Shown here: positions 3,001 through 34,052 of the stretch, piece after piece
Numbering within the stretch: the first letter of the stretch is position 1
Layout of the letters: every line of letters starts with the position of its first letter
Source: Bacteroidia bacterium
GTDB lineage: Bacteria; Bacteroidota; Bacteroidia; UBA8524
DNA: 64,000 bases
Assembly: GCA_037968475.1 (NCBI GenBank)
Contig: JBBKVO010000024.1
Coordinates: 68,067 to 132,066 of the forward strand
Direction of reading: 5' to 3'
Translations under genes and position numbers: made by a program
Notes under the pieces: model-generated
What the model was told of the DNA's origin: nothing
Seen by the model: the letters and a program-made list of their open reading frames with translations, nothing else
The model's database searches: none

Positions 3001-6000
3001 CTATGTTACCGATAGTGCCTCGGTACCTGTGAAACTGGAAAACGGTGATGTTGAAAATGTTACTTGGTATCAACTGCGTATACCCGTAAACTCTTGGAGT
3101 AAAAAAATAGGCGGTATTAGCGATTTTAAATCTATTCGTTTCGCACGTTTGTTTGTAAAAGATTTTGACCAACCCATTGTATTACGTTTTGCACAAATGC
3201 AATTGGTACGTGCTGATTGGAGAAGGTATACAAAACCTCTTTCGGTGGGTGTGCCGGGTGTACCGGGTTCGCCTAGTGATAATACAGCGTTCTCAGTATC
3301 AACAGTAAATATCGAAGAGAACTCTACCCGTGTTCCTGTAAACTATACCCTGCCTCCGGGTTTCTTCCGTGAGCAAGATGTAACAACACCAAACAACGTG
3401 CAACAAAACGAGCAATCGGTATCCGTACGTTTTTGCAATCTACAAGAAGGCGATGCTAGGGGTATATTTAAAACCACTCGTTTTGATATCCGTAACTACA
3501 AGCATTTACGTATGTTCGTTCATGCCGAAGGGGAAAGTCAAGGCCTGCGTAATGGAGATGTTAAAGCCTTTATACGTTTAGGTACGGATTTAGAAAATAA
3601 CTACTACGAGTACGAGCTGCCACTTTTGGTAACGCCTGATAAAAGCCGCGATGCGCAGCAAGTGTGGCCTACTGAAAATGAGATAAACATAGCCCTTGAA
3701 GAGTTTTATTTAGCTAAGCAATTGCGCCAAAATGCCAATGCCCCACAAAACCAAGATTTTGTATACGATTTGGGTGGCGGAAAACGTATTACACTTAGAG
3801 GTGTGCCCGATTTGAGTAACGTGCGTGTAATAATGCTTGGTGTGCGCAACCCCGCTAAGTTTGATAACCCGTCGGGAGATGATGGTTTAGCAAAATGTGG
3901 TGAGATATGGTTTAATGAGTTACGTGTGGTTGAGTTTAATAACCAAGGCGGTGAGGCTGCTACTGCACGTTTAGTAACCAAACTGGCCGATTTGGGAACT
4001 TTCACCATATCGGGAAACTATCAATCTATTGGTTGGGGCGGTATTGATAAAAAACTGAATGATCGTAACCTTAACGAGATAATGCTGTACGATATGCAAA
4101 CCTCGTTAGAGTTGGGCAAGTTTTTCCCTGCTAAGTGGGGCGTAACAATACCTTTCTTTATGCAACGCGGTGAGCAGTTTATACGCCCTAAGTATAACCC
4201 GCTAAACCCTGATATTTTGCTTACAACCACTATTAAAACATCTAAAAGTGAGCAAGAAAAGCAAGAAATTATATCGGCAGCACAAGATTATACATCCAGA
4301 CGTAGTTTTAACTTTACCAATGTGCGTAAAAACCGTACTGGTGGTGGCAAACCACAGATATGGGACATTGAGAATTTTAACTTTACCTTCTCTTTTCAAG
4401 AAGTATTTAGACGAAACCAGCAAATTGCTGCCAGCTTACAACGCACATGGCGTGGTAGTGGGGGATATACTTTTGCTACGGGAGCGAAAAATATAGAACC
4501 ATTAAAGAAAATAATGAAGCCAAAGAAATGGTTGGCTTTGGTACGCGATTTCAACTTTACGCCTTACCCTCAAAGCTTCTCGGTAAGGGCTGATGCTGAC
4601 CGTTATTATTCAAGGACAATAAACCGAAATAATGACGACCCCAATACCATCGTCCCCATTTTGTACGATAAAAACTTCACCATGAATAGGGTGTATGATG
4701 TACGCTGGGATTTAACAAAAAGCCTTAAACTTGACTACCAAGCTACCTCTAATGCCCGTATTGATGAGCCAACAGGCAGGATTGATAAAAGCGAAGACCC
4801 ACACAAGATAGATACTATACAAAACAACTTTATCAACTTGGGGCGTACTACTAATTATACCCAAATAACCAACGTAAACTATACACTACCTCTAAACAAA
4901 ATACCTGTTTTAGATTGGGTAACGGCCAGCACACGATACACTGCCAATTATGGTTGGGTAACAGCACCACCTGCTATAAAAAGTTTAGGAAATACCATAC
5001 AAAACTCACAAAACTACTCGTATACAGGCCAGTTTAATATGGTTAACCTGTACAATAAAATACCTGCACTGCGCCGTATAAATCAAAACCAAAACAATAC
5101 TCCCAAACCAAAAGTTGAAGAGGAGGAAGAGGAAGATGATGGCAAAGGCGGTAAGAGGAAGAAAAAGAAGAAAACCGAATCGCCCCTAAAAGGTTTTGGT
5201 ACTGCTTTGGCAAAAACCTTAATGATGCTTAAAAACGCATCGTTTACCTCTACATCAACAAAAGGAACCACACTACCGGGCTTTAGGCACACCCCATTGT
5301 ATTTGGGTAATGATGCCGAACGGAATGCACCGGGTTGGGATTTTGTTTTTGGTAGCCAAGACCCTGCGGTACGTTATCGATTGGCTCAAGAAGGTTTTTT
5401 AAGTACCGATACGCTTCAAAATAATTACTTTACCCAAACCAGCCGAAAAGATTTTACGGCCAGTGCCACGTTAGAGCCTTTTAAAGATTTTAGAGTAGAG
5501 TTGCGATTCTCTCGAAACCAAACCGAAAACCAGCAAAGTGTATTTAAGTACGATGAAGCGGTGAAAGGTTATAACGATTTCGGTTTCCAGCAAACTGGTA
5601 GTTTCCAAATTGGTATATCTACACTGCGTACCACGCTGGAGAAAAAAGCGACCAATACCAGTTCTAAATCATTCGATCAGTTTTTAAATAATCGTTTTGT
5701 AATTGCACAACGCTATGCTGCCGAAGATCCTCGTTCGGTAGGAGCCACACAAAGCGGTTTCCCTAAAGGCTATACCAACAAAAACCAAGATGTGCTTATA
5801 TCTTCTTTTGTATCAGCATACACAGGCAAAAATGCACAAGGCCAGAGGCTGGATTTATTCCCTAAAATGCCTTTCCCTTCAATACGTATTAACTACAATG
5901 GGCTAAGCCGTATGAAGGCAATTAAAAAATATGCCAGTAGCGTAACATTGTCATCGTTCTATAGCTCAACCTATAATATACCTCAGTATATGACTATTTT

Positions 6001-6547
6001 GAGTCGTAACGACACAGCGGTAAGCAATTTGGATAGTAACTTCTTCCCCAAATACGAAATACGCTCTGTAACAATTCAAGAGAGCTTTAACCCGCTTATC
6101 AGGATTGATATCACCTTCTTGAACAACATTACTACCAACTTGGAGTATAAATCGTCGCGTAATATCTCACTATCACTATTCAACTTTATGATGGTTGAAA
6201 CTCGAAACTCAGAGTTTGTGATTGGTTTTGGTTATCGAGCCAAAGAAATATACCTTCCATTTAAAGTTCGTGGACGTAAACCCTACTTGAAAAACGATTT
6301 GAATGTTCGTATGGATTTCTCTATACGCGATGTGGTAACCATAACCCGCAATGTGCAAACCTTGCAAACTATACCCACACAAGGGCAACGTATTATATCT
6401 ATAAAACCACAAATAGATTATATGCTGAACGAGAAACTAAACTTACGTTTCTACTACGACAGAAGGGTAACCAAGCCGGCTACGTCGAACGCCTTCCCTA
6501 CGGCTATTACGCAAGGGGGTATATCACTACGCTATACACTACAATAA
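1..6547 (+). CDS. sprA: Giant cell-surface/outer-membrane protein, probable T9SS translocon/gliding protein SprA. It is 5'-truncated by the window edge: the reading frame is open from nt 2 and the ORF track starts at an internal TTG at nt 110.
   Basis: The 2145-aa ORF has no stop upstream in frame back to the window start. Composition is N/T/Y/G-rich and beta-rich, typical of the Bacteroidetes giant barrel SprA (about 2400 aa). T9SS-sorted cargo genes lie nearby in the window. Strong hairpin terminators follow the stop. Confidence 0.65.
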   Translation, partial: RFKTTWRYDTEATFDFDNQINLNWQGKEDDIIKNVQLGNVSLPLNSSLIQGGQSLFGALLQMQFGRLMVTTIFTQQRGQTTETEVTGGAQVTQFDIQADNYDVNRHYFLSHYFADNYNQWCSTSPFISSPILITNVQVWVTNRTGIFDNTRDVLAFMDMGERNPFNNTWNIPSGPVNADNSSNSLYNTFQFDDLARQSNEAVKHLRQDKGLDPIQDFQLLNNARQLNTNEYTVNPRLGYISLNQALNNDEILAVAFEYTLNGKSYKVGEFAREISSPDPNKPNALMLKMLKGTTITTSLPIWDLMMKNIYSLGSFSVQKEQFKLNIIYADDPSNADLNYIPAKNEPNFIGVPLVQVLNLDKVNTQGEATPDGVFDFIEGLTINTSNGRVIFPVREPFGDFLRSKFQDPANAEYYAYDALYDSTKWLAQQEVLKNKFFLRGSYQGSSNSEISLNAINVPQGSVRVTANGTLLTEGTDYIVDYTIGRVKILNTGILNSGAVIKVSSENNNLFSIQQKTLIGARFDYKVDKDFIIGGTVMHLYERPITPKVNIGEEPILNTVVGVDGSIRRESRTLTRLIDRLPFISTKEPSNFQFSFEGAKLFPHNPKTIGQRGTAFIDDFEASETPFDLRLGAPWYVASTPEGQPDLFPETQNTANALGFGYKRARLAWYSLDPIFFRDQQGSNPPTPPNLAGSSNASKRSNHYTREVLQTEVFPNRQLQQGVPQNMPTFDLAYYPYIRGQYNYTVDGINADGEMKDPKSSWGGIMRRIDQNDFEAANIDYVEIWMMDPFLPGQNGTVQDGKFNSNNLSGGSLYLNLGSVSEDVLRDTRKSYENGLPTPSSTQQLTDETEWARVPNVPTLNNAFDADPAAREAQDVGLDGFNDNDERAHFSQYLDTLRQIFGATSQAYLKAAEDPSGDNYQFHSSKNFNNQNAGALERYQKINGQEGNSKLATFQPDGYPVTRTNLPDDEDINRDYSLNINEQYYQYKIDLKPNSLIVGQNYVTDSASVPVKLENGDVENVTWYQLRIPVNSWSKKIGGISDFKSIRFARLFVKDFDQPIVLRFAQMQLVRADWRRYTKPLSVGVPGVPGSPSDNTAFSVSTVNIEENSTRVPVNYTLPPGFFREQDVTTPNNVQQNEQSVSVRFCNLQEGDARGIFKTTRFDIRNYKHLRMFVHAEGESQGLRNGDVKAFIRLGTDLENNYYEYELPLLVTPDKSRDAQQVWPTENEINIALEEFYLAKQLRQNANAPQNQDFVYDLGGGKRITLRGVPDLSNVRVIMLGVRNPAKFDNPSGDDGLAKCGEIWFNELRVVEFNNQGGEAATARLVTKLADLGTFTISGNYQSIGWGGIDKKLNDRNLNEIMLYDMQTSLELGKFFPAKWGVTIPFFMQRGEQFIRPKYNPLNPDILLTTTIKTSKSEQEKQEIISAAQDYTSRRSFNFTNVRKNRTGGGKPQIWDIENFNFTFSFQEVFRRNQQIAASLQRTWRGSGGYTFATGAKNIEPLKKIMKPKKWLALVRDFNFTPYPQSFSVRADADRYYSRTINRNNDDPNTIVPILYDKNFTMNRVYDVRWDLTKSLKLDYQATSNARIDEPTGRIDKSEDPHKIDTIQNNFINLGRTTNYTQITNVNYTLPLNKIPVLDWVTASTRYTANYGWVTAPPAIKSLGNTIQNSQNYSYTGQFNMVNLYNKIPALRRINQNQNNTPKPKVEEEEEEDDGKGGKRKKKKKTESPLKGFGTALAKTLMMLKNASFTSTSTKGTTLPGFRHTPLYLGNDAERNAPGWDFVFGSQDPAVRYRLAQEGFLSTDTLQNNYFTQTSRKDFTASATLEPFKDFRVELRFSRNQTENQQSVFKYDEAVKGYNDFGFQQTGSFQIGISTLRTTLEKKATNTSSKSFDQFLNNRFVIAQRYAAEDPRSVGATQSGFPKGYTNKNQDVLISSFVSAYTGKNAQGQRLDLFPKMPFPSIRINYNGLSRMKAIKKYASSVTLSSFYSSTYNIPQYMTILSRNDTAVSNLDSNFFPKYEIRSVTIQESFNPLIRIDITFLNNITTNLEYKSSRNISLSLFNFMMVETRNSEFVIGFGYRAKEIYLPFKVRGRKPYLKNDLNVRMDFSIRDVVTITRNVQTLQTIPTQGQRIISIKPQIDYMLNEKLNLRFYYDRRVTKPATSNAFPTAITQGGISLRYTLQ

Positions 6548-11581: not shown

Positions 11582-11796
11582 ATAAAGCAAGTTTAAGGTA
11601 GTCGTTAAGAACTACTTTTCAAACATAGGATGACACCTGCCGCACCCAATTCCCCGTCACCCTGAATTTATTTCAGGGTCTCGTTGCCCAATAACCATTA
11701 ATACAGAGCGAGATGCTGAAATAAATTCAGCATGACTGTCCAACGGCAATTGATTTTTGCAAAGACCTTCGGGCAAGGTTTCCCTCCTTGCAGGGT

Positions 11797-11820
11797 TGTC
11801 TTGCTGAGCGGAGTCGAAGC
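11797..11820 (+). repeat. Copy of the genome-wide hairpin repeat core (TGTCttgCTGAGCGGAGTCGAAGc), embedded in a GC-rich, hairpin-dense block spanning 11620-11990
   Basis: Matches the cores at 27409, 27683, 27796, 32506, 32906 and 32945. The upstream flank ttccctccttgc is shared with the copy at 27785. Confidence 0.55.
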
Positions 11821-12028
11821 ACGCGGGAAGGCAAAAGATAGAGAAGGAGTGGTTTAAGTCGGTAAGGACTTTTCAGCCTCCACCCGCACAGATTCCCTTT
11901 TACAGGGGAATGACGGGTAGCCGCGCCGTGCCAGTACAGTTCCCCGAAGCGTCCCTCGCTTCGGGACACTAGCTTTTAGTATTTCGTTATGTCAAGCTTT
12001 CGCGTGGATACGAGTTTGCTGGTGTATT

Positions 12029-12768: not shown

Positions 12769-12960
12769 TCAGCTTAGAGTATAAAACTCTACTTTTTCAG
12801 TATTGTGCGAGCGGATAATACCCGCCGAAATAAGGTTGACCAATATTTTACTGGCACGCCAGCGCGAAATATTTATCATTTTGCATCCGCTCGTTTGTGG
12901 TTTAAGCTTATCAGCTTCATTGGCCTGAAGACCAATGCTATTCATACCTAACGGCACTCC
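12769..12960 (-). pseudogene. Copy B, a fragment (last ~60 codons plus stop) of the AlbA_2-like gene. It is about 92% identical to 13087-13275 with an ~18-bp internal deletion.
   Basis: The 62-aa ORF translation ends ...CKMINISRWRASKILVNLISAGIIRSHNTEKVEFYTLS, which is identical to the C-terminus of the 207-aa protein at 13087-13710. Confidence 0.65.
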
Positions 12961-13086
12961 CGATAGGGTCTAAATAGCGGTAGGTTTTAACCTGCTGCGG
13001 TAGTAAGGGCATAACTATACTCTCGCACAGATTTTATAATTTTCTTTTATCGAACGCACATTAGGGTCAGATGTTTTTATCTATCC

Positions 13087-27313: not shown

Positions 27314-27358
27314 TACTTCCCCCTTTGTCAAACTTTAAAAGTTTGACAAAGGGGGAAG
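27314..27358. repeat. Perfect 45-nt palindrome (cttccccctttgtcaaacttt-a-aaagtttgacaaagggggaag) ~50 bp upstream of the GT-C/ccm operon start
   Basis: Seen directly in the sequence. Confidence 0.6.
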
Positions 27359-27408
27359 TGATATTGGTTTTCTTTTTCATCCCCCTACCTCCTTCGCTTG
27401 CGCACTTA

Positions 27409-27432
27409 TCCTTCGACTTCGCTCTGGATGAC
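27409..27432 (-). repeat. Hairpin-repeat core copy (reverse orientation): ccttcgacttcgctctggatgaca
   Basis: Matches the family consensus TGTCATCCTGAGCGRAGTCGAAGG. Confidence 0.55.
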
Positions 27433-27505
27433 AACGCGCTTGTGCATGGGCTAGTTCGGTTTTACTCACCCTAAAAAATACAAAATCGTACGATGGCTCA
27501 AAATT

Positions 27506-27530
27506 TCCCCTCTCTAAAAATTAGAGAGGG
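27506..27530. repeat. Perfect hairpin cccctctcta-aaaat-tagagagggg
   Basis: Seen directly in the sequence. Confidence 0.5.
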
Positions 27531-27682
27531 GAGCAACGACACAAATCAGGCTAAACAATATTTTGGGGTGAGTTAAAAAAACCTTGTCGACAGGTTAAAA
27601 CCTGCCGCTATTTATTACCCTATCGGGATTGCCGTGAGGTATGAATAGAATCGGGTTTCAAACCGATGAAAGCAACAGCACT

Positions 27683-27820
27683 CCTTCGACTTCGCTCAGG
27701 ATGACAGCCGCCGCACAAGGGGGACAATGCAGGGTTATATTTTTGGCAAAATAGTCTAAAAACCAATGGGCAGAGTCGTGGCTTCCCTCCTTGCGCTGTC
27801 GTCCAGAGCGAAGTCGAAGG
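27683..27820. mobile_element. MITE-like element, 138 bp. Terminal inverted copies of the repeat core (27683-27706 reverse, 27796-27820 forward) flank a ~90-bp spacer containing the family's internal motif caagggggacaatgcagg.
   Basis: The two 24-bp termini are reverse complements (22/24 matches). The same internal motif recurs at 32452-32478. Confidence 0.5.
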
Positions 27821-27978
27821 ATTGTGTCTGGATAAGGAGGGACTGAGGGTGGTATAAGTTGGTGTATTGATTTTTAACCCGAGCTTACGTTGAGTTAATC
27901 TTATTTCTTAAAGTAGAAAAATATAAAAAGATTGCTCTGTTAACATAAGAGGTTTTTCCACAATGACGAAAAAAAAGC

Positions 27979-28562: not shown

Positions 28563-29492
28563 CTAAGTGCCTATTTGCCATAGCTTGGCGGTTTTGTCAT
28601 CACTGCACGAAATAAGCCTATTATCATCAACCCACAAAATTTTGTTTACTGATGATGTGTGCCCGTCGTACTTTTCTTTGTCAATAACCTTTAGCAGCTC
28701 AAAAGTATCGGCATCCCATATTTTAAGGGTTTTATCCATGCTTGCCGTGGCAAAATAGTGCCCTGCGGGGCTGTATTGTATGGCGTTTATGTGCAGCCAA
28801 TGGGCATTTATGGTTTGTACTGGTGCAAAGCCTTTGTGTACTTCCCAAATTTTTAACACGGCATCCAGCCCACCGCTAAGTAAAAACGCACCGTTGGGCG
28901 AGTAAGCCAAAGCCATTACCGTATTGGTATGCCCTTGTATTTGCTGCAACAGCTCAAAACTTTCAATATCAAATACCCTAATAATAGCATCGCTATACCC
29001 CACAGCCATTTGTGGCAAGGTGGGGTGAAAGGCTATTACACGGGCTTTTTTATCGCTGTGCTGTATATTGGCAAACAGGGTAAGTGTTTCCCGATCCCAT
29101 ACCTTTAGGCTGCCTTCGCCACCTGCACTTAAAATTTTATTTCCGTGTGCAGCCAAATCAAAAATACCTGCGCGGTGCGCTTCAATATTTCGGGTTTCTT
29201 GGCGTTGTTGCATATCCAGCACGTGCAAATGGCCTGCACTGGTGCCGCACAACAACCGTTTTTCATCGCCCAAAACTAAAAACGAGTACACAGGCGAATT
29301 GGCTTTTACCAGCAATTGCCCATCGGCGGGTTGTTCAAAATTCCACTCCACCACCCAACCTTCGGCACCGCCTGTTACAAACGTATTGGGGGCAAAGCCT
29401 TTGCCCAAGCCAAACAGCGCGGCTTTGTGGCCGGTATAAGTAAACAGTTTATGGGCGTGTAGTTTGGTCAAATTGGGTATTGTGATGTCCAC
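28563..29492 (-). CDS. WD40-repeat protein
   Basis: 309 aa with ~7 repeats ending in W(D/E)/IWD. Confidence 0.7.
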   Translation of the reverse strand: MDITIPNLTKLHAHKLFTYTGHKAALFGLGKGFAPNTFVTGGAEGWVVEWNFEQPADGQLLVKANSPVYSFLVLGDEKRLLCGTSAGHLHVLDMQQRQETRNIEAHRAGIFDLAAHGNKILSAGGEGSLKVWDRETLTLFANIQHSDKKARVIAFHPTLPQMAVGYSDAIIRVFDIESFELLQQIQGHTNTVMALAYSPNGAFLLSGGLDAVLKIWEVHKGFAPVQTINAHWLHINAIQYSPAGHYFATASMDKTLKIWDADTFELLKVIDKEKYDGHTSSVNKILWVDDNRLISCSDDKTAKLWQIGT

Positions 29493-29518
29493 AAAAATAC
29501 AGCAATAGGAAAAAGAAG

Positions 29519-30511
29519 TTACTCTCTTAATAATAACCCTAAATCATAAGTGCCTGAAATGCCAGAATAATAATGAGACTCTTTTATCTCGTCCTTAAAA
29601 TAGGTTCTCTTTTCCCCATTCTTTAAATCTATGATGCGCATCTTAGTGTCTGACGACGTGTCATTAAGGCAAATAATATTTTCTCCGCTATGTAGAGTTA
29701 AATACAACACTTTTTTCTCTTTAGATAACATTTCACAAACAGAACCATTAGAAGTATTTGTACATTCACCAATATAATACGCGTTGGTTTCACTTTTATT
29801 TAGTTGAAAAATCTTAACAGTGTCTACAAGAAAATCAAAGGTGAAGTTTTTTTGTGTATTCTTATGTTTGATGGCAAAACCTATTGATAGTGTTGGGTAT
29901 TTAAGAATATATGATGTGCTGTTTTGAAGTGACGAAGTCATATCTTTTTGGTAGCTACCATCCTCGATAACTAACCTACTGGGCCAATAATTGCTTGTCG
30001 TCGATTTTTTATGAGTCGTGGTAGTTGCAAAATAATTATTGCTACTTGCCCATTGATAATTAAACGTATATAACTCCTTACCTAAGGAAGAAATTGATGA
30101 TGTAAAACGAGAAGTGCTTTTATGCGCGGGGATTATTGTTGTATTTGATGTTTTTTGAGCAACATTTTGGTCGAGGATGTTTTCTTCTAAAATATCAGGA
30201 TTAAATAGTTTTTGAGAGTTTCCCGTTGGCTCTACCAAATAAGATTCATCCCAAATAATAAAAGCATTATCATCGGTATTATTTGTTATTTTAAACCAAA
30301 CGCCTTGCCCTGTCAATGCAAAATTAAACTCAAAACTATCTTGGGGAGTAATATTAGATTTTGTAGTCTTACTCTTTATGGAATAAAGAAAAACAGTTGG
30401 TTTACAACTAAAAGAGATAAGCGCAAAAGAAAAGATAAGTAAAAAAAATTTAGCCATAAGCAAAGATATAAAAAGAATAACTTGTTCGATATTACTTTTG
30501 AAGTGTGCCAA
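29519..30511 (-). CDS. Hypothetical lipoprotein (lipobox ISFSC), low GC
   Basis: 330-aa ORF, S/T/N-rich, AT-rich codon usage. The probable true start is an internal Met (MAKFFLL...). Confidence 0.4.
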   Translation of the reverse strand: MAHFKSNIEQVILFISLLMAKFFLLIFSFALISFSCKPTVFLYSIKSKTTKSNITPQDSFEFNFALTGQGVWFKITNNTDDNAFIIWDESYLVEPTGNSQKLFNPDILEENILDQNVAQKTSNTTIIPAHKSTSRFTSSISSLGKELYTFNYQWASSNNYFATTTTHKKSTTSNYWPSRLVIEDGSYQKDMTSSLQNSTSYILKYPTLSIGFAIKHKNTQKNFTFDFLVDTVKIFQLNKSETNAYYIGECTNTSNGSVCEMLSKEKKVLYLTLHSGENIICLNDTSSDTKMRIIDLKNGEKRTYFKDEIKESHYYSGISGTYDLGLLLRE

Positions 30512-31134
30512 TAGTCCTGCAAAAATACCCTAATGCCGATACAGAATTGGCGGTGTGGAAAATTACTGAAAGCGTTGAGGAACTGAAAGAGATGCTTTGG
30601 ATGTTTCCGTTTGAAGAATTTAAGTTTCCCAGTCGCAACCAGCAATGGCTATCAAGCCGCGTATTGCTGCAAGAGGTATTGAAAAACAAAACGGAAGAAA
30701 AGCACCTGAAAGTGCTGAAACAACCGAACGGAAGACCTTTTATTGATGGTTTGGGCTATAATTTTAGCATGAGCCACTCAGCAGAGTATGCGGCAGTATT
30801 GGTGAGCAAAACGGGCAGTGTGGGAGTTGATATTGAAGAGATAAACGAACGAATAAAAAAAATAGCCCGCAAGTTTATAAACGAATACGAGTGGCAGCAC
30901 TTGGCTGGCGAAAACGACTTGCACACTATGTATTTGATATGGAGTGCCAAAGAAGCTATTTTTAAATGGTTTGGCGATGGGCAGGTAGATTTTAGAAAAA
31001 ATATGCAGATACTTTTTCCTATTGCTGAAAACGCAACCGAGTTTGAAGCTGTATTACTGAAAGAGAAAGAATATAACCTAACCATACACACCGAAATTGT
31101 TGACGAACAATACCGCTTGTGTTGGGTGTATTGA
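30505..31134 (+). CDS. 4'-phosphopantetheinyl transferase, Sfp/EntD type
   Basis: 209 aa. NFSMSHS and WSAKEAIFKWFG motifs. Confidence 0.7.
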   Translation: MPIVLQKYPNADTELAVWKITESVEELKEMLWMFPFEEFKFPSRNQQWLSSRVLLQEVLKNKTEEKHLKVLKQPNGRPFIDGLGYNFSMSHSAEYAAVLVSKTGSVGVDIEEINERIKKIARKFINEYEWQHLAGENDLHTMYLIWSAKEAIFKWFGDGQVDFRKNMQILFPIAENATEFEAVLLKEKEYNLTIHTEIVDEQYRLCWVY

Positions 31135-31143
31135 TGTGAAATT

Positions 31144-31701
31144 ATGAGAAAATTAAAGGCATTGGTATTTATTCTAGTTGTTCTCACGTTAGGTTGTGAA
31201 ATGAAAACGTACACACTTCAAAATGGAATAACAAAGGTTCCTGTTGACTCAACTGTATATAAGAATAAATCTAAATTTGATAAAAGTCTCCTAACTATTA
31301 TAGATACTGGGGTGATATATGAAGAATACAGGTCTGAAAAGAAAATCTTATCGAGATTGGATAGTGATATTACTACAAGTATTTATGGAGTTATAAGGTT
31401 TTATTCAAATGGATGCTATAATAATTTTTATATTAATAGAGATAATATGTTAGATTCAAATGATTTTAATCCTTTATATAATGGTAAAAGAGGAGTTTAT
31501 TATAAGGAAGGAAACCAAATTCGGTATGATTTGTATGCAGAAAGTAATCAACAAGGGCATATTGGGTTGTTAACTGGCACTTTTGTTTTTAGCAATGATA
31601 CTTTATATAAGTACACTTACAGTGATTATTTAAAACAGCCTAGTATCTATATTAAACGGAGGCTGCCCACAGGGTATTTAGATTATAGTGCCAATTGGTA
31701 G
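31144..31701 (+). CDS. Hypothetical lipoprotein (MRKLKALV...LTLGC), low GC
   Basis: 185 aa. The signal peptide and lipobox are seen in the sequence. The first 9 codons are shared with the ORF at 31911. Confidence 0.45.
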   Translation: MRKLKALVFILVVLTLGCEMKTYTLQNGITKVPVDSTVYKNKSKFDKSLLTIIDTGVIYEEYRSEKKILSRLDSDITTSIYGVIRFYSNGCYNNFYINRDNMLDSNDFNPLYNGKRGVYYKEGNQIRYDLYAESNQQGHIGLLTGTFVFSNDTLYKYTYSDYLKQPSIYIKRRLPTGYLDYSANW

Positions 31702-31713
31702 TGAAGGTATTGG

Positions 31714-31901
31714 AGCGAAAAGCCATTTTTAAATGGTTTGGCGATGGCCAGGTTGATTTTAGAAAAAATATGCAGATATTTTTTCCTATTGCTGAAAGTG
31801 CCACCGAGTTTGAAGCGGTATTGCTAAAAGAGAAAGAATATAACCTAACCATACACACCGAAATTGTAGACGAACAATACCGCTTGTGTTGGGTGTATTG
31901 A
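31714..31901 (+). pseudogene. Duplicated 3' fragment of the PPTase gene (last ~58 codons)
   Basis: The 68-aa ORF tail KAIFKWFGDGQVDFRKNMQIFFPIAESATEFEAVLLKEKEYNLTIHTEIVDEQYRLCWVY is near-identical to the C-terminus of 30505-31134. It is part of a 226-bp direct repeat (30947-31172 versus 31714-31939, ~93% identical). Confidence 0.7.
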
Positions 31902-31910
31902 GGTAAAATT

Positions 31911-32402
31911 ATGAGAAAATTAAAGGCATTAGTATTGTTAGTTATTGCTGTTTTAAGTGTTTTTGTTTTTTGTAAAGTGAAAAGCTTTTATACTTTTCAA
32001 GAAACAATTAAGCCTGTAATGAAGTACGACACATTGTGGAGGATGATAGGCTATTCAGTTGAGTCTTATACTAAGGAATTTCCTGAAGATTCTGTGATTA
32101 CTATTAAAGATATACAAGATTTTATTGGGTGTGATACGTCTACAAAAAGTTATGGGAATTTTGCTTTTATATATGCCGCTGAATATAATTTTTTCCGACA
32201 GGAAAATATTAGAATCCAAAGAGTAGATTCTCTAGACAAAGTTTTTGTTTATTATGAATTAAATAGTGCCTATCCCATTGCTGAATTTAATCCCTATGAA
32301 AAAGGTTTTTTTGATTTTTTATTTTTGAGGAAAAATATTTTGATTAATGAGGTTAATATTTGGCATAAACGTAAAGACGTCAGAACAGCTTATCCAAATT
32401 AA
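31911..32402 (+). CDS. Hypothetical secreted protein or lipoprotein. It shares only the first 9 codons (MRKLKALVL) with 31144-31701 and is low GC.
   Basis: 163-aa ORF. Its start lies inside the downstream copy of the direct repeat. Confidence 0.4.
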   Translation: MRKLKALVLLVIAVLSVFVFCKVKSFYTFQETIKPVMKYDTLWRMIGYSVESYTKEFPEDSVITIKDIQDFIGCDTSTKSYGNFAFIYAAEYNFFRQENIRIQRVDSLDKVFVYYELNSAYPIAEFNPYEKGFFDFLFLRKNILINEVNIWHKRKDVRTAYPN

Positions 32403-32439
32403 AGTACGCCGATTACTCAAAAGTGATTTCCATCCCCTT

Positions 32440-32540
32440 ACGAACTAACCTTGCTCAAGGGGGACAATACAGCGCGAGTTATTATTTAATAGTTTGTGCG
32501 GTATTTGTCATCCTGAGCGGAGTCGAAGGAGAGCGAGGGG
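32440..32540 (+). repeat. Hairpin-repeat family copy (internal motif caagggggacaatacagcg ... core TGTCATCCTGAGCGGAGTCGAAGGAGAGCGAGGGG)
   Basis: Aligned to the copies at 27683-27733 and 32945-32978. Confidence 0.55.
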
Positions 32541-32548
32541 TAAAACGT

Positions 32549-32857
32549 TTATTTATTTTTATAATGAGAGCTGTTTTTGCATACGGCTAATTCTTTTAGC
32601 AACTCAAAATCGCCATTAATCAGTGCTTCTTTTTTCTTTCTACTCCAACCTTTTAGTTGTTTTTCAAAAGCTATAGCAAGAGTTGCAATAGTAAACTCAG
32701 TAGTAAATAATAAATTAACAGGTCGGCGTTCAAATGTATAGGCTTTGTTGTCCGCACTCGTGTTATGTTCCTCTAACCTACGGTTTATATCATTGGTTAT
32801 ACCTGTGTAGTATGAACCATCAGAGCACTTTACTATATAAACAATATAAAGTTTCAC
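32549..32857 (-). CDS. GIY-YIG nuclease family protein (UPF0213/COG2827-like), probable GTG start
   Basis: (V)KLYIVYIVKCSDGSYYTGITNDINRRLEEHN is the canonical GIY-YIG N-terminal motif. The ATG-initiated 133-aa track ORF runs into the flanking repeat and is taken as an artefactual extension. Confidence 0.65.
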   Translation of the reverse strand: MKLYIVYIVKCSDGSYYTGITNDINRRLEEHNTSADNKAYTFERRPVNLLFTTEFTIATLAIAFEKQLKGWSRKKKEALINGDFELLKELAVCKNSSHYKNK

Positions 32858-32905
32858 TTGCGGCAATATAACCGAATTTTTAATTGGCTTGGCCACCACA
32901 CCGTG

Positions 32906-32978
32906 CCTCGACTCCGCTCGGCATGACACAGCGCGCTGTGCGGCTGTCATCCTGAGCGGAGTCGAAGGAGAGCGAGGG
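32906..32978. repeat. Inverted pair of hairpin-repeat cores (32906-32928 reverse, 32945-32978 forward) forming a ~23-bp stem with a 16-nt loop
   Basis: cctcgactccgctcggcatgaca ... tgtcatcctgagcggagtcgaagg. Confidence 0.6.
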
Positions 32979-32984
32979 TTGGGA

Positions 32985-34052
32985 TTAAAACTTAACGCCT
33001 AATTTAACGCCTAATTCTTCCAAGTCTTTTGTTACGGCATCGGTAAGGGGTATACCATTTTGCAGGCGGTTTTCTTGCTCAAAAATTTCGGGTTCGCCGG
33101 GTATTAGCACTTTTTTGCCTTCAATAGCAGGTGATGCCTTAAAGCGTTCTATCCAATTTTCAATATTTTTATTGTATTCGTCCATCGGGCGAAAACCATC
33201 TACCCGCATAGCTCCCACAAAATGACCGATACCTTGTCCCGGCATATCAGCAGCAAGGGGCAAAAAACTAACAAAAGGGGGCACCCACGGGCCATAGTTT
33301 GCACCTGATAATACCGCCGAAAATATATCTACCACCGCCGCCAGCGCATAGCCTTTGTGTCCCGCCTCTTCCATACTGCCAAGGGGTAGCAATGCGCCGC
33401 CTTTTTTCAGTTCGGCAGGGTCGGTACTGGGTTGTCCGTCTTTGGTTTGTACCCAACCTTCGGGGATGCTTTTGTTTAGTCGCTGAGCTATTTCCAGTTT
33501 TCCGTTTGCCGCTGCCGATGTGGCTAAATCGCTTACAACGGGTGTATATTTTCCCGCAGGCATAGCAAAACACATGGGGTTGGTGCCCAGTAAACGCTCA
33601 GTACTGTTGGTAGGGGCTACTAGCGGACTGGCATTGGTCATACTAATGCCAATCATATTTTGTTCTGTTGCCATTAGGGCATGGTAGGCCGCAATACCAA
33701 AGTGGTTAGAGTTTTTTATGGCTACCCATCCGCTGCCTACGTTGTTGGCTTTTTCAATAGCTATTTCCATAGCTTTTGGGGCTACTACCAAGCCCAAACC
33801 TTCATCGCCATCTACTGTGGCGGTGGATGGGGTTTGGTGGACTATTTTAATATTGGGTTTGGGGTTTATACGGCCTGCTTCCCATAGGCGCACGTAGCCC
33901 GATAGGCGGGCAACACCATGCGAATCAATTCCGCGTATATCAGCCTTTACCAAAACATTGGTGGCAAGGGTAGCATCAGCATCGCTGCAACCCATTTTAG
34001 TAAAAACCGAATGACAAAAGTTTTCTAAGTGTTGTTTTGTGTAGGTATTCAT
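32985..34052 (-). CDS. Ldh_2 family (malate/L-lactate/sulfolactate dehydrogenase-like) oxidoreductase
   Basis: 355 aa. N-terminal region GIDSHGVARL is typical of Ldh_2. Confidence 0.65.
   Translation of the reverse strand: MNTYTKQHLENFCHSVFTKMGCSDADATLATNVLVKADIRGIDSHGVARLSGYVRLWEAGRINPKPNIKIVHQTPSTATVDGDEGLGLVVAPKAMEIAIEKANNVGSGWVAIKNSNHFGIAAYHALMATEQNMIGISMTNASPLVAPTNSTERLLGTNPMCFAMPAGKYTPVVSDLATSAAANGKLEIAQRLNKSIPEGWVQTKDGQPSTDPAELKKGGALLPLGSMEEAGHKGYALAAVVDIFSAVLSGANYGPWVPPFVSFLPLAADMPGQGIGHFVGAMRVDGFRPMDEYNKNIENWIERFKASPAIEGKKVLIPGEPEIFEQENRLQNGIPLTDAVTKDLEELGVKLGVKF

Follow-up and report, generated by a model that had tools for sequence, protein, structure and literature searches.

Inverted 25-nt hairpin modules flank a stand-alone GIY-YIG nuclease gene of Bacteroidota in an arrangement resembling that of REP/RAYT pairs

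We analyzed a 64,000-nt stretch of a Bacteroidia genome (contig JBBKVO010000024.1 of assembly GCA_037968475.1, hereafter the window) in which a small gene for a GIY-YIG nuclease lies between inverted copies of a hairpin repeat. Homologs of this gene in 80 species were found to be associated with the same repeat, a 25-nt module with a covarying stem, in a biased orientation and with a loop type that follows the protein clade. The gene is inherited mostly vertically, and insertions and deletions were found that end at modules. We lean toward the view that nuclease and modules form a partnership like that of repetitive extragenic palindromes (REP) and REP-associated tyrosine transposases (RAYT), built here on a structure-specific GIY-YIG nuclease that would process or mobilize the repeats.

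The GIY-YIG gene, the only one in the window, occupies positions 32549-32857 on the minus strand (stop codon included) and encodes 102 amino acids from a GTG start at 32857. It matches the Pfam GIY-YIG profile (PF01541) with an E value of 3.7e-18 and a score of 66 bits against a cutoff of 22.6. The version in our protein collection (P0001) is a 133-residue open reading frame (ORF) that begins at ATG 32950 and translates through the repeat; the homologs start at the position of GTG 32857. Residues Y7, Y17, R27, H31, and E65 are invariant among 35 homologs, and by analogy with the numbering of I-TevI, we take them to be the GIY tyrosine, the YIG tyrosine, the arginine, the histidine, and the metal-binding glutamate, respectively.

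Comparison of the family profile with PDB returned 1zg2 (E 1.3e-20) and 1ywl (E 1.5e-15), both deposited as hypothetical proteins, and a weak match to SLX1. An AlphaFold (AF2) model of the nuclease (predicted local distance difference test score, 87.6) gave the same order with Foldseek: 1zg2, 1ywl, and then Slx1 chains (6seh and 7cq4) with E values of ~3e-3, with UvrC at 0.16. The nuclease core of the model superposed on Slx1 domains, a 5'-flap DNA complex among them, at 2.3-2.6 Å over ~70 residues, and the superposition on UvrC was poorer. The protein is thus a single domain of ~100 residues that is nearer to 1zg2, 1ywl, and Slx1 than to UvrC, and as judged from sequence and the predicted structure, it is a stand-alone member of the UPF0213/YhbQ family with an Slx1-like fold. 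Dunin-Horkawicz et al. (2006; PMC1564403) grouped such proteins as a "non-eukaryotic Slx1 cluster," with no mention of repeats, and assigned homing endonucleases to the UvrC lineage.

The gene is located between chromosomal genes. Its phage relatives share <50% identity over 76% of the protein. No match to the nuclease was found in NCBIfam or PHROGs, and no family among the PADLOC anti-phage defense profiles matched it; with both PADLOC and PHROGs empty, a reading as a defense system or phage gene was rejected.

The original prediction, made from the sequence of the window, held that inverted repeat copies bracket the gene, and its coordinates proved right. An exact 34-nt direct repeat, TGTCATCCTGAGCGGAGTCGAAGGAGAGCGAGGG, occurs at 32506-32539 and 32945-32978, with the PF01541-matching gene between the two copies, and an inverted arm at 32908-32928 is 90% complementary to both of them. 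A core pattern of the repeat has 6 matches in the window (0.00 expected from shuffles), and a covariance model detected 7 significant copies, 3 of which are within 100 bp of the gene. The elements around the gene are as follows.

32904-32928, minus strand: upstream-proximal 25-nt module TGTCA-TGCC-GAGCGGAGTCGA-GGCA, forward relative to the gene (covariance model, 41.2 bits, E 1e-10; inverted repeat I1/I2)
32945-32969, plus strand: outer upstream module TGTCA-TCCT-GAGCGGAGTCGA-AGGA, reverse relative to the gene (covariance model, 40.8 bits)
32506-32530, plus strand: downstream-proximal module, reverse relative to the gene (covariance model, 41.9 bits, E 6e-11; within exact repeat D1)
32449-32467, minus strand: degenerate outer module of the left dimer (TTGTCCCCCTTGAGC-------AAGG), read from the sequence, with a 7-nt deletion; it pairs with 32506-32530 in the fold
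32506-32539, plus strand: left copy of the 34-nt direct repeat, consisting of the module plus AGAGCGAGGG (family D1, 100% identity)
32945-32978, plus strand: right copy of the 34-nt direct repeat; the closest relative (L266) loses homology at 32946, where the module has its TGACA end

Both flanks of the gene are full hairpin dimers in the same orientation on the plus strand and are direct copies of one dimer. Along the strand of the gene, a reverse arm is followed by a 15-nt loop, a forward arm, 46 nt, the gene, 18 nt, a second reverse arm, a loop, and a degenerate forward arm. In the orientation of the gene, the nearest upstream module is forward (TGTCA...) and the nearest downstream module is reverse, which amounts to an inverted bracketing. 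The upstream-proximal module (32904-32928) ends 46 nt before the GTG start and has the self-complementary stem TGCC/GGCA, and the downstream-proximal module (32506-32530) begins 18 nt past the stop codon on the strand of the gene. With RNA parameters, the two flank dimers fold at -45 and -36 kcal/mol (z scores of -4.0 and -3.8); the former, at -45.2 kcal/mol and a z score of -4.0, is the right dimer formed by 32945-32969 and 32904-32928. The corresponding DNA-parameter energies are -24.5 and -13.4.

The repeat unit is the 25-nt module T-GTCA-NN-CT-GAGCGNAGTCGA-AG-NN, which has sharp boundaries, the information content dropping to background on both sides. It consists of a conserved and unpaired TGTCA head, a 4-bp stem, and a conserved, purine-rich 12-nt loop, GAGCGNAGTCGA. 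The two NN dinucleotides are free in sequence yet complementary, as seen in the counts of the pair N5:N22 (GC, 111; CG, 96; TA, 35; AT, 18), and the CT/AG pairs of the stem also switch jointly, to CC/GG or GT/AC. Among 90 modules, 97.4% of the stem cells pair, compared to 76.1% in shuffles, with none of 500 shuffles reaching the observed value; slid controls gave 33-52%, and all four stem pairs vary on both sides. Modules upstream and downstream of one gene often have different stems, each of which is self-complementary. The unit is therefore the single module without long-range pairing, and pairing of upstream with downstream arms was rejected as the functional structure, since the arms differ in their stem bases yet keep their own complementarity. 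These findings identify the functional unit as a 25-nt mini-hairpin rather than a long hairpin. The loop may be closed by tandem G.A pairs, a G-C pair, a C-G pair, and a GNA triloop, a closure available to the purine-rich strand only.

Variants of the module include a loop class, GAGCYTGTCGA, and expanded loops at four loci (L002, L004, L056, and L067). In intergenic DNA of Bacteroidota, modules are arranged singly, in tandem, and as inverted dimers. A search of Rfam yielded no match at gathering score in the window and only chance-level matches within 32300-33100 (E of at least 0.88), ruling out a known RNA family.

The association between gene and module extends across the loci of the best 80 homologs, which represent 80 species, nearly all Bacteroidota, with proteins of 53-69% identity. 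Of 146 intergenic regions adjoining the gene, 123 contained a module, as did 9 of the 380 remaining intergenic regions in these loci (odds ratio, 220; p 8e-84), and the intergenic module density was 7.64 and 0.27 per kb, respectively, a 28-fold difference. Within 200 bp of the gene, module density is ~8 per kb on the upstream side and ~6 per kb on the downstream side; beyond 1 kb, it is 0.02-0.06 per kb. We found an upstream module within 250 bp in 73 of 77 loci, the nearest one being forward in 62, and a downstream module in 54 of 78 loci, the nearest one being reverse in 43. Another 21 modules, all reverse, overlap the ORF at its 3' end, and in many loci the downstream module starts 3-14 nt from the stop codon. 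The preference for forward modules upstream and reverse modules downstream is strong (p 9e-10 and 1e-5). By a strict count, 36 loci have the complete forward-gene-reverse layout, with more once the modules overlapping the stop codon are included. The original prediction had called for such an association and would have been undermined by repeats flanking unrelated genes as often; the association is borne out across the 80 species, with biased orientation.

Loop type also follows the protein: GNA and YTG loops track the protein clade, and the clade spans more than one order. In the protein dendrogram, YTG-type modules belong to three or four blocks, one of which joins Sphingobacterium with Chryseobacterium candidae and Elizabethkingia meningoseptica. 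GNA-type modules are found at E. miricola and the remaining Chryseobacterium loci, which represent a different, syntenic locus. Gene and modules were also found together in assembled genomes assigned to Saccharibacteria, Peribacteria, and Brevinematales.

The 80 loci represent 45 genomic contexts. Neighboring genes are shared within groups of 10 Flavobacterium species, 9 marine Flavobacteriaceae species, and 6 Chryseobacterium/Elizabethkingia species, and inside syntenic loci, individual modules turn over while modules as such persist across genera. The gene is thus inherited mostly vertically, with occasional relocation. The closest homologs of the window protein (80% and 77% identity) are encoded beside a UvrA-like gene and beside mfd, and both are flanked by modules. 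In Mariniflexile aquimaris (L029), two nuclease genes stand in tandem (5542-5847 and 6001-6306), each with its own flanking modules. At the locus of the closest homolog (L081), a 69-nt direct repeat with 90% identity (4781-4849 and 5547-5615) surrounds a hairpin-gene-hairpin block. This repeat takes in the start of the downstream gene and resembles a long target duplication or the product of a single-crossover integration.

In the window, the nuclease gene lies at a site next to the Ldh2 gene. Comparison with related genomes, which had been proposed earlier as a check for insertion polymorphism, revealed that the gene is absent from this site in all seven sampled relatives (Ldh2 identity, 78-92% for nucleotides and 86-96% for protein), and the content of the site differs in each of them. 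In the closest relative, L266, the homologous stretch extends from Ldh2 across the first module as far as window position 32946. Elsewhere, comparison of window positions 27408-27705 with 10080-10540 of L266 revealed a ~273-nt segment that L266 lacks, with two direct module copies in the window corresponding to one hybrid copy. From the sequences, this difference could be either a module-duplicating insertion or a deletion by recombination between the two copies. The break in L266 homology at a module end and the ~273-nt segment indicate that modules coincide with breakpoints of structural change. The dispersed modules of the window, including those at this segment, are as follows.

27681-27705, minus strand: module away from the GIY-YIG gene, one of two direct copies bounding the ~273-nt segment absent from L266 (39.5 bits)
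27408-27432, minus strand: module (TGTCATCCAGAGCGAAGTCGAAGGA), the other direct copy bounding the ~273-nt segment (29.6 bits)
27797-27821, plus strand: module forming a dimer with 27681-27705 across a 91-nt spacer, the dimer being kept in L266 (23.4 bits)
11797-11821, plus strand: solitary module TGTCT-TGCT-GAGCGGAGTCGA-AGCA (39.2 bits)

Modules also occur away from the gene in other DNA. Only 2 of 120 metagenome loci with a module encode the gene, and 6 of 208 modules (~3%) are within 300 bp of it; the modules therefore constitute a dispersed population in which the gene locus is one site among many. Viral contigs from IMG/VR (L209-L265) contain 98 module copies, at 0.19 per kb, and some have four copies on one strand. 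Dispersed module clusters are predominantly intergenic (127 of 141) and are enriched between convergent genes (21 of 71; baseline, 16%). Among solitary dimers, head-to-head and tail-to-tail arrangements are both seen. Among 148 ORFs flanking dispersed modules, no other Pfam family recurred, the maximum for any family being 3, and another enzyme as the true partner was rejected on this basis.

We detected no bias in the strand of the modules relative to transcription, with 42 sense and 27 antisense modules in metagenomes and 23 sense and 36 antisense modules in viral contigs. In Flavobacterium, modules appear from the sequence to lie upstream of a candidate promoter motif. The absent strand bias and this position argue for a role at the level of DNA. 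On these same observations, along with the reverse-complement copies downstream of genes, an RNA element of the 5' untranslated region was rejected.

The arrangement has its closest parallel in the REP/REPIN-RAYT systems of Proteobacteria. There, a short palindromic repeat with a conserved, unpaired head and a hairpin of variable stem is dispersed in intergenic copies, often as inverted dimers, and the RAYT gene, mostly vertically inherited, lies between inverted copies, with a repeat variant for each gene clade. The modules and gene described here share the unpaired head with a covarying hairpin, the inverted copies around the gene, probably the many dispersed copies, the mostly vertical inheritance, and the clade-specific repeat, so that the likeness to REP/RAYT pairs suggested by the original prediction fits the anatomy of the system. 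In contrast to RAYTs, the enzyme here is an Slx1-like GIY-YIG protein unrelated to the HUH/Y1 transposases, the head is TGTCA instead of GTAG, conservation of the repeat lies in the loop and not in the stem, and the hosts belong to the phylum Bacteroidota. Because the defining HUH enzyme is absent, we regard the system as an analogue of REP/RAYT and not as a member. The earlier remark that no such partnership was known to have been described agrees with our searches, as neither Rfam nor the literature, the latter covered incompletely, yielded a prior account.

Other known systems resemble parts of the locus. In IS200/IS605 elements, the TnpA gene lies between subterminal hairpins, presumably recognized in the form of folded single strands, with a short conserved sequence at the hairpin foot. 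The small gene between hairpins and the conserved sequence at the foot are common to both, but the end hairpins of IS200/IS605 are on the same strand whereas those here are inverted, the enzymes belong to different classes, and nothing here points to autonomous elements of high copy number. GIY-YIG homing endonucleases of the I-TevI type, in which the nuclease is joined to a DNA-binding domain and which reside in introns, inteins, or phages, have the catalytic domain and motif residues in common with the window protein. Unlike them, the window protein has no DNA-binding domain and is encoded outside an intron or phage, and its model matches the UvrC GIY-YIG domain much worse than Slx1. With a nuclease domain only, chromosomal neighbors, and no PHROGs match, the gene was rejected as a GIY-YIG homing endonuclease gene.

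The comparison with Slx1, a structure-specific endonuclease of eukaryotes (with its partner Slx4; PDB 6seh, 7cq4, and 4xm5), bears on what the protein may cut. The nuclease cores superpose, better than with UvrC, and Slx1 cuts branched DNA at junctions of single- and double-stranded DNA, a substrate that a TGTCA head followed by a stem would offer. The window protein differs in its length of 102 residues and in having neither a RING domain nor an Slx4 partner, and it would share the substrate preference of Slx1 only by extension. In sequence and fold, it belongs with the UPF0213/YhbQ proteins BH0048 (1zg2), EF2693 (1ywl), and E. coli YhbQ, from the last of which it differs by its flanking repeats.

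We propose that this Slx1-like nuclease reads the head and loop of a module that is folded or extruded and nicks where single-stranded DNA meets double-stranded DNA, preferentially near its own gene. Repair or template switching after such nicks would duplicate modules locally and occasionally elsewhere. The same process could produce the insertions and deletions bounded by modules and would now and then relocate the gene along with its flanking modules. More tentatively, the UPF0213/YhbQ protein of Bacteroidota may be the dedicated enzyme of a phylum-wide set of structured 25-nt DNA modules that serve as cleavage or recombination sites, with DNA segments, among them the nuclease gene itself, being inserted, deleted, or duplicated between copies.

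Several observations weigh against a partnership of nuclease and modules. A single module folds at -1 to -2.8 kcal/mol with nearest-neighbor DNA parameters, no better than shuffles, and the hairpin therefore rests on the covariation of the stem together with the assumed noncanonical pairs of the loop. About 97% of the modules sampled from metagenomes are away from the gene, and none of the 57 viral contigs with modules carries the GIY-YIG gene. The polymorphism at the Ldh2 site is a replacement inside a hypervariable spot and not a clean insertion, and L266 is without the gene at this site yet has kept intact modules. In E. coli, yhbQ, whose annotation is that of a DNA damage response nuclease, fits tightly between yhbP and yhbS without flanking repeats, and the distant paralog at L046 has no modules either; the basic role of the UPF0213 family may be repair. 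These module-free genes rule out a link with modules as a general property of UPF0213, and the repeat partnership is limited to one Bacteroidota clade of the family.

The main alternative is that the locus is a selfish mobile cassette, either a free-standing gene of the homing endonuclease kind or a small transposon with modules as its inverted ends. It would cut modules elsewhere and insert copies of itself there, and the dispersed modules would be its targets or landing sites or else defective derivatives of it. The gene is bracketed, as by such ends, by inverted modules whose TGTCA points outward, and several observations suit this reading: the two closest homologs have kept their modules in other gene contexts, presence of the gene at the Ldh2 site is lineage specific with an exact 34-nt direct repeat around it, the cassette of the closest homolog is surrounded by its 69-nt direct repeat, 45 contexts are found among 80 loci, and gene and modules recur in genomes assigned to Saccharibacteria, Peribacteria, and Brevinematales. 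A cassette of this kind is nonetheless hard to reconcile with the stable position of the gene within the Flavobacterium, marine Flavobacteriaceae, and Chryseobacterium/Elizabethkingia groups and with the fact that no genome among the best 80 has two loci. Furthermore, the protein consists of a 102-residue nuclease domain only and lacks the DNA-binding domain found in GIY-YIG homing enzymes, the modules of the two flanks have not stayed identical, and the occurrence of solitary dimers in both orders means that they are not simple internal deletions of a cassette. There is also no consistent short target-site duplication, as the duplications seen are the module itself (34 nt) or long (69 nt at L081), and we could not establish a classical transposon, with its inverted ends and duplicated target site. 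We consider a selfish cassette unlikely.

Less probable still, and in our judgment quite improbable, is that the modules are cis-acting elements, such as terminators, insulators, or sites for some other regulator, which surround a potentially toxic nuclease gene, act generically elsewhere, and have no enzymatic link to the protein. The strong hairpins formed by dimers, the mostly intergenic location and convergent-gene enrichment of dispersed modules, and the many downstream modules just past the stop codon would suit terminators. A generic terminator, however, would not be 28-fold denser beside one gene family and is not expected upstream of the gene in 73 of 77 loci; a loop type that changes with the protein clade would likewise be unexpected, modules show no strand preference relative to transcription, and no other conserved neighboring gene is present to encode a regulator. 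Coincidence, in which a small gene and repeats accumulate independently in hypervariable spacers such as the Ldh2-ACPS spacer, which varies greatly among relatives and holds several other repeat types and duplications, is scarcely credible given the recurrence of the pairing in 45 contexts from 80 species (odds ratio over neighboring intergenic regions, 220), the orientation bias (p 9e-10), and the persistence of modules at syntenic loci across genera while single copies turn over.

If the nuclease does act on the modules as we favor, dispersed hairpin repeats with one resident enzyme arose at least twice, from unrelated nucleases. On the more tentative reading of a dedicated enzyme with phylum-wide modules, this would be the first repeat-associated nuclease system without an HUH transposase, with a cassette-like behavior that recalls integron attC sites. 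We found no account in the literature linking GIY-YIG proteins to such repeats and no occurrence of the motif strings, although coverage was incomplete and an earlier description is possible. UPF0213/YhbQ is a large, conserved family with solved structures whose substrate is not established, for which the modules are a concrete candidate that brings its own controls in the form of head, loop, and compensatory stem mutants. The partnership would also suggest where the repeat, which is found again and again in Bacteroidota genomes, comes from; its translation gives rise to spurious ORF extensions, such as the 133-residue ORF from ATG 32950. The module model can be used to mask repeats in gene calling, and modules flag likely breakpoints of small structural variation.

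Other repeats and rearrangements were observed in the window and its relatives. A dispersed repeat of ~80 nt, for which Rfam gave no match, has copies that are 85-87% identical at window positions 27591-27670 and 12916-12994 (minus strand), at 7292-7369 of L266, and at 5705-5746 of L273. Its sites differ between related genomes, and in L266 it is located just 3' of Ldh2, where the window has the nuclease cassette. At 27317-27358, the window contains a perfect long palindrome, CTTCCCCCTTTGTCAAACTTT-taa-AAGTTTGACAAAGGGGGAAG, of which L266 has the right half only (CAAAGGGGGAAG). In the window, the flank is thus duplicated in inverted orientation, as if by fold-back synthesis.

Closer to the nuclease gene, a 217-nt direct repeat with 94% identity (30953-31169 and 31720-31936) comprises the 3' end of a phosphopantetheinyl transferase gene and the start of a lipoprotein-like gene, resulting in two units that each consist of a gene fragment and a small secreted protein. 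Two such units are present in L271 and none or one in L266 and L267. A block of ~1 kb at 29471-30492, with a 330-residue ORF on the minus strand (29519-30511), is absent from L266 and L267. The flanks of this block are nearly adjacent in L271 and L273 as well. It is a further strain-specific block beside the same gene cluster.

Two further sets of hairpins share the GTCA head of the module. In the cassette-free relatives L267 (7080-7210) and L271 (5090-5215), a different hairpin repeat headed GTCATTGCGAG lies 3' of Ldh2 and represents another family with this head. Within the window, two other hairpins at 11653-11739, gtcACCCTGAAtttatTTCAGGGT and the minus-strand gtcATGCTGAAtttatTTCAGCAT, have the GTCA head in common with the module as well as its start. 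These hairpins match the module model weakly (E 0.2-0.3), have a similar copy 3' of Ldh2 in L266, and may constitute a sister family of the module.

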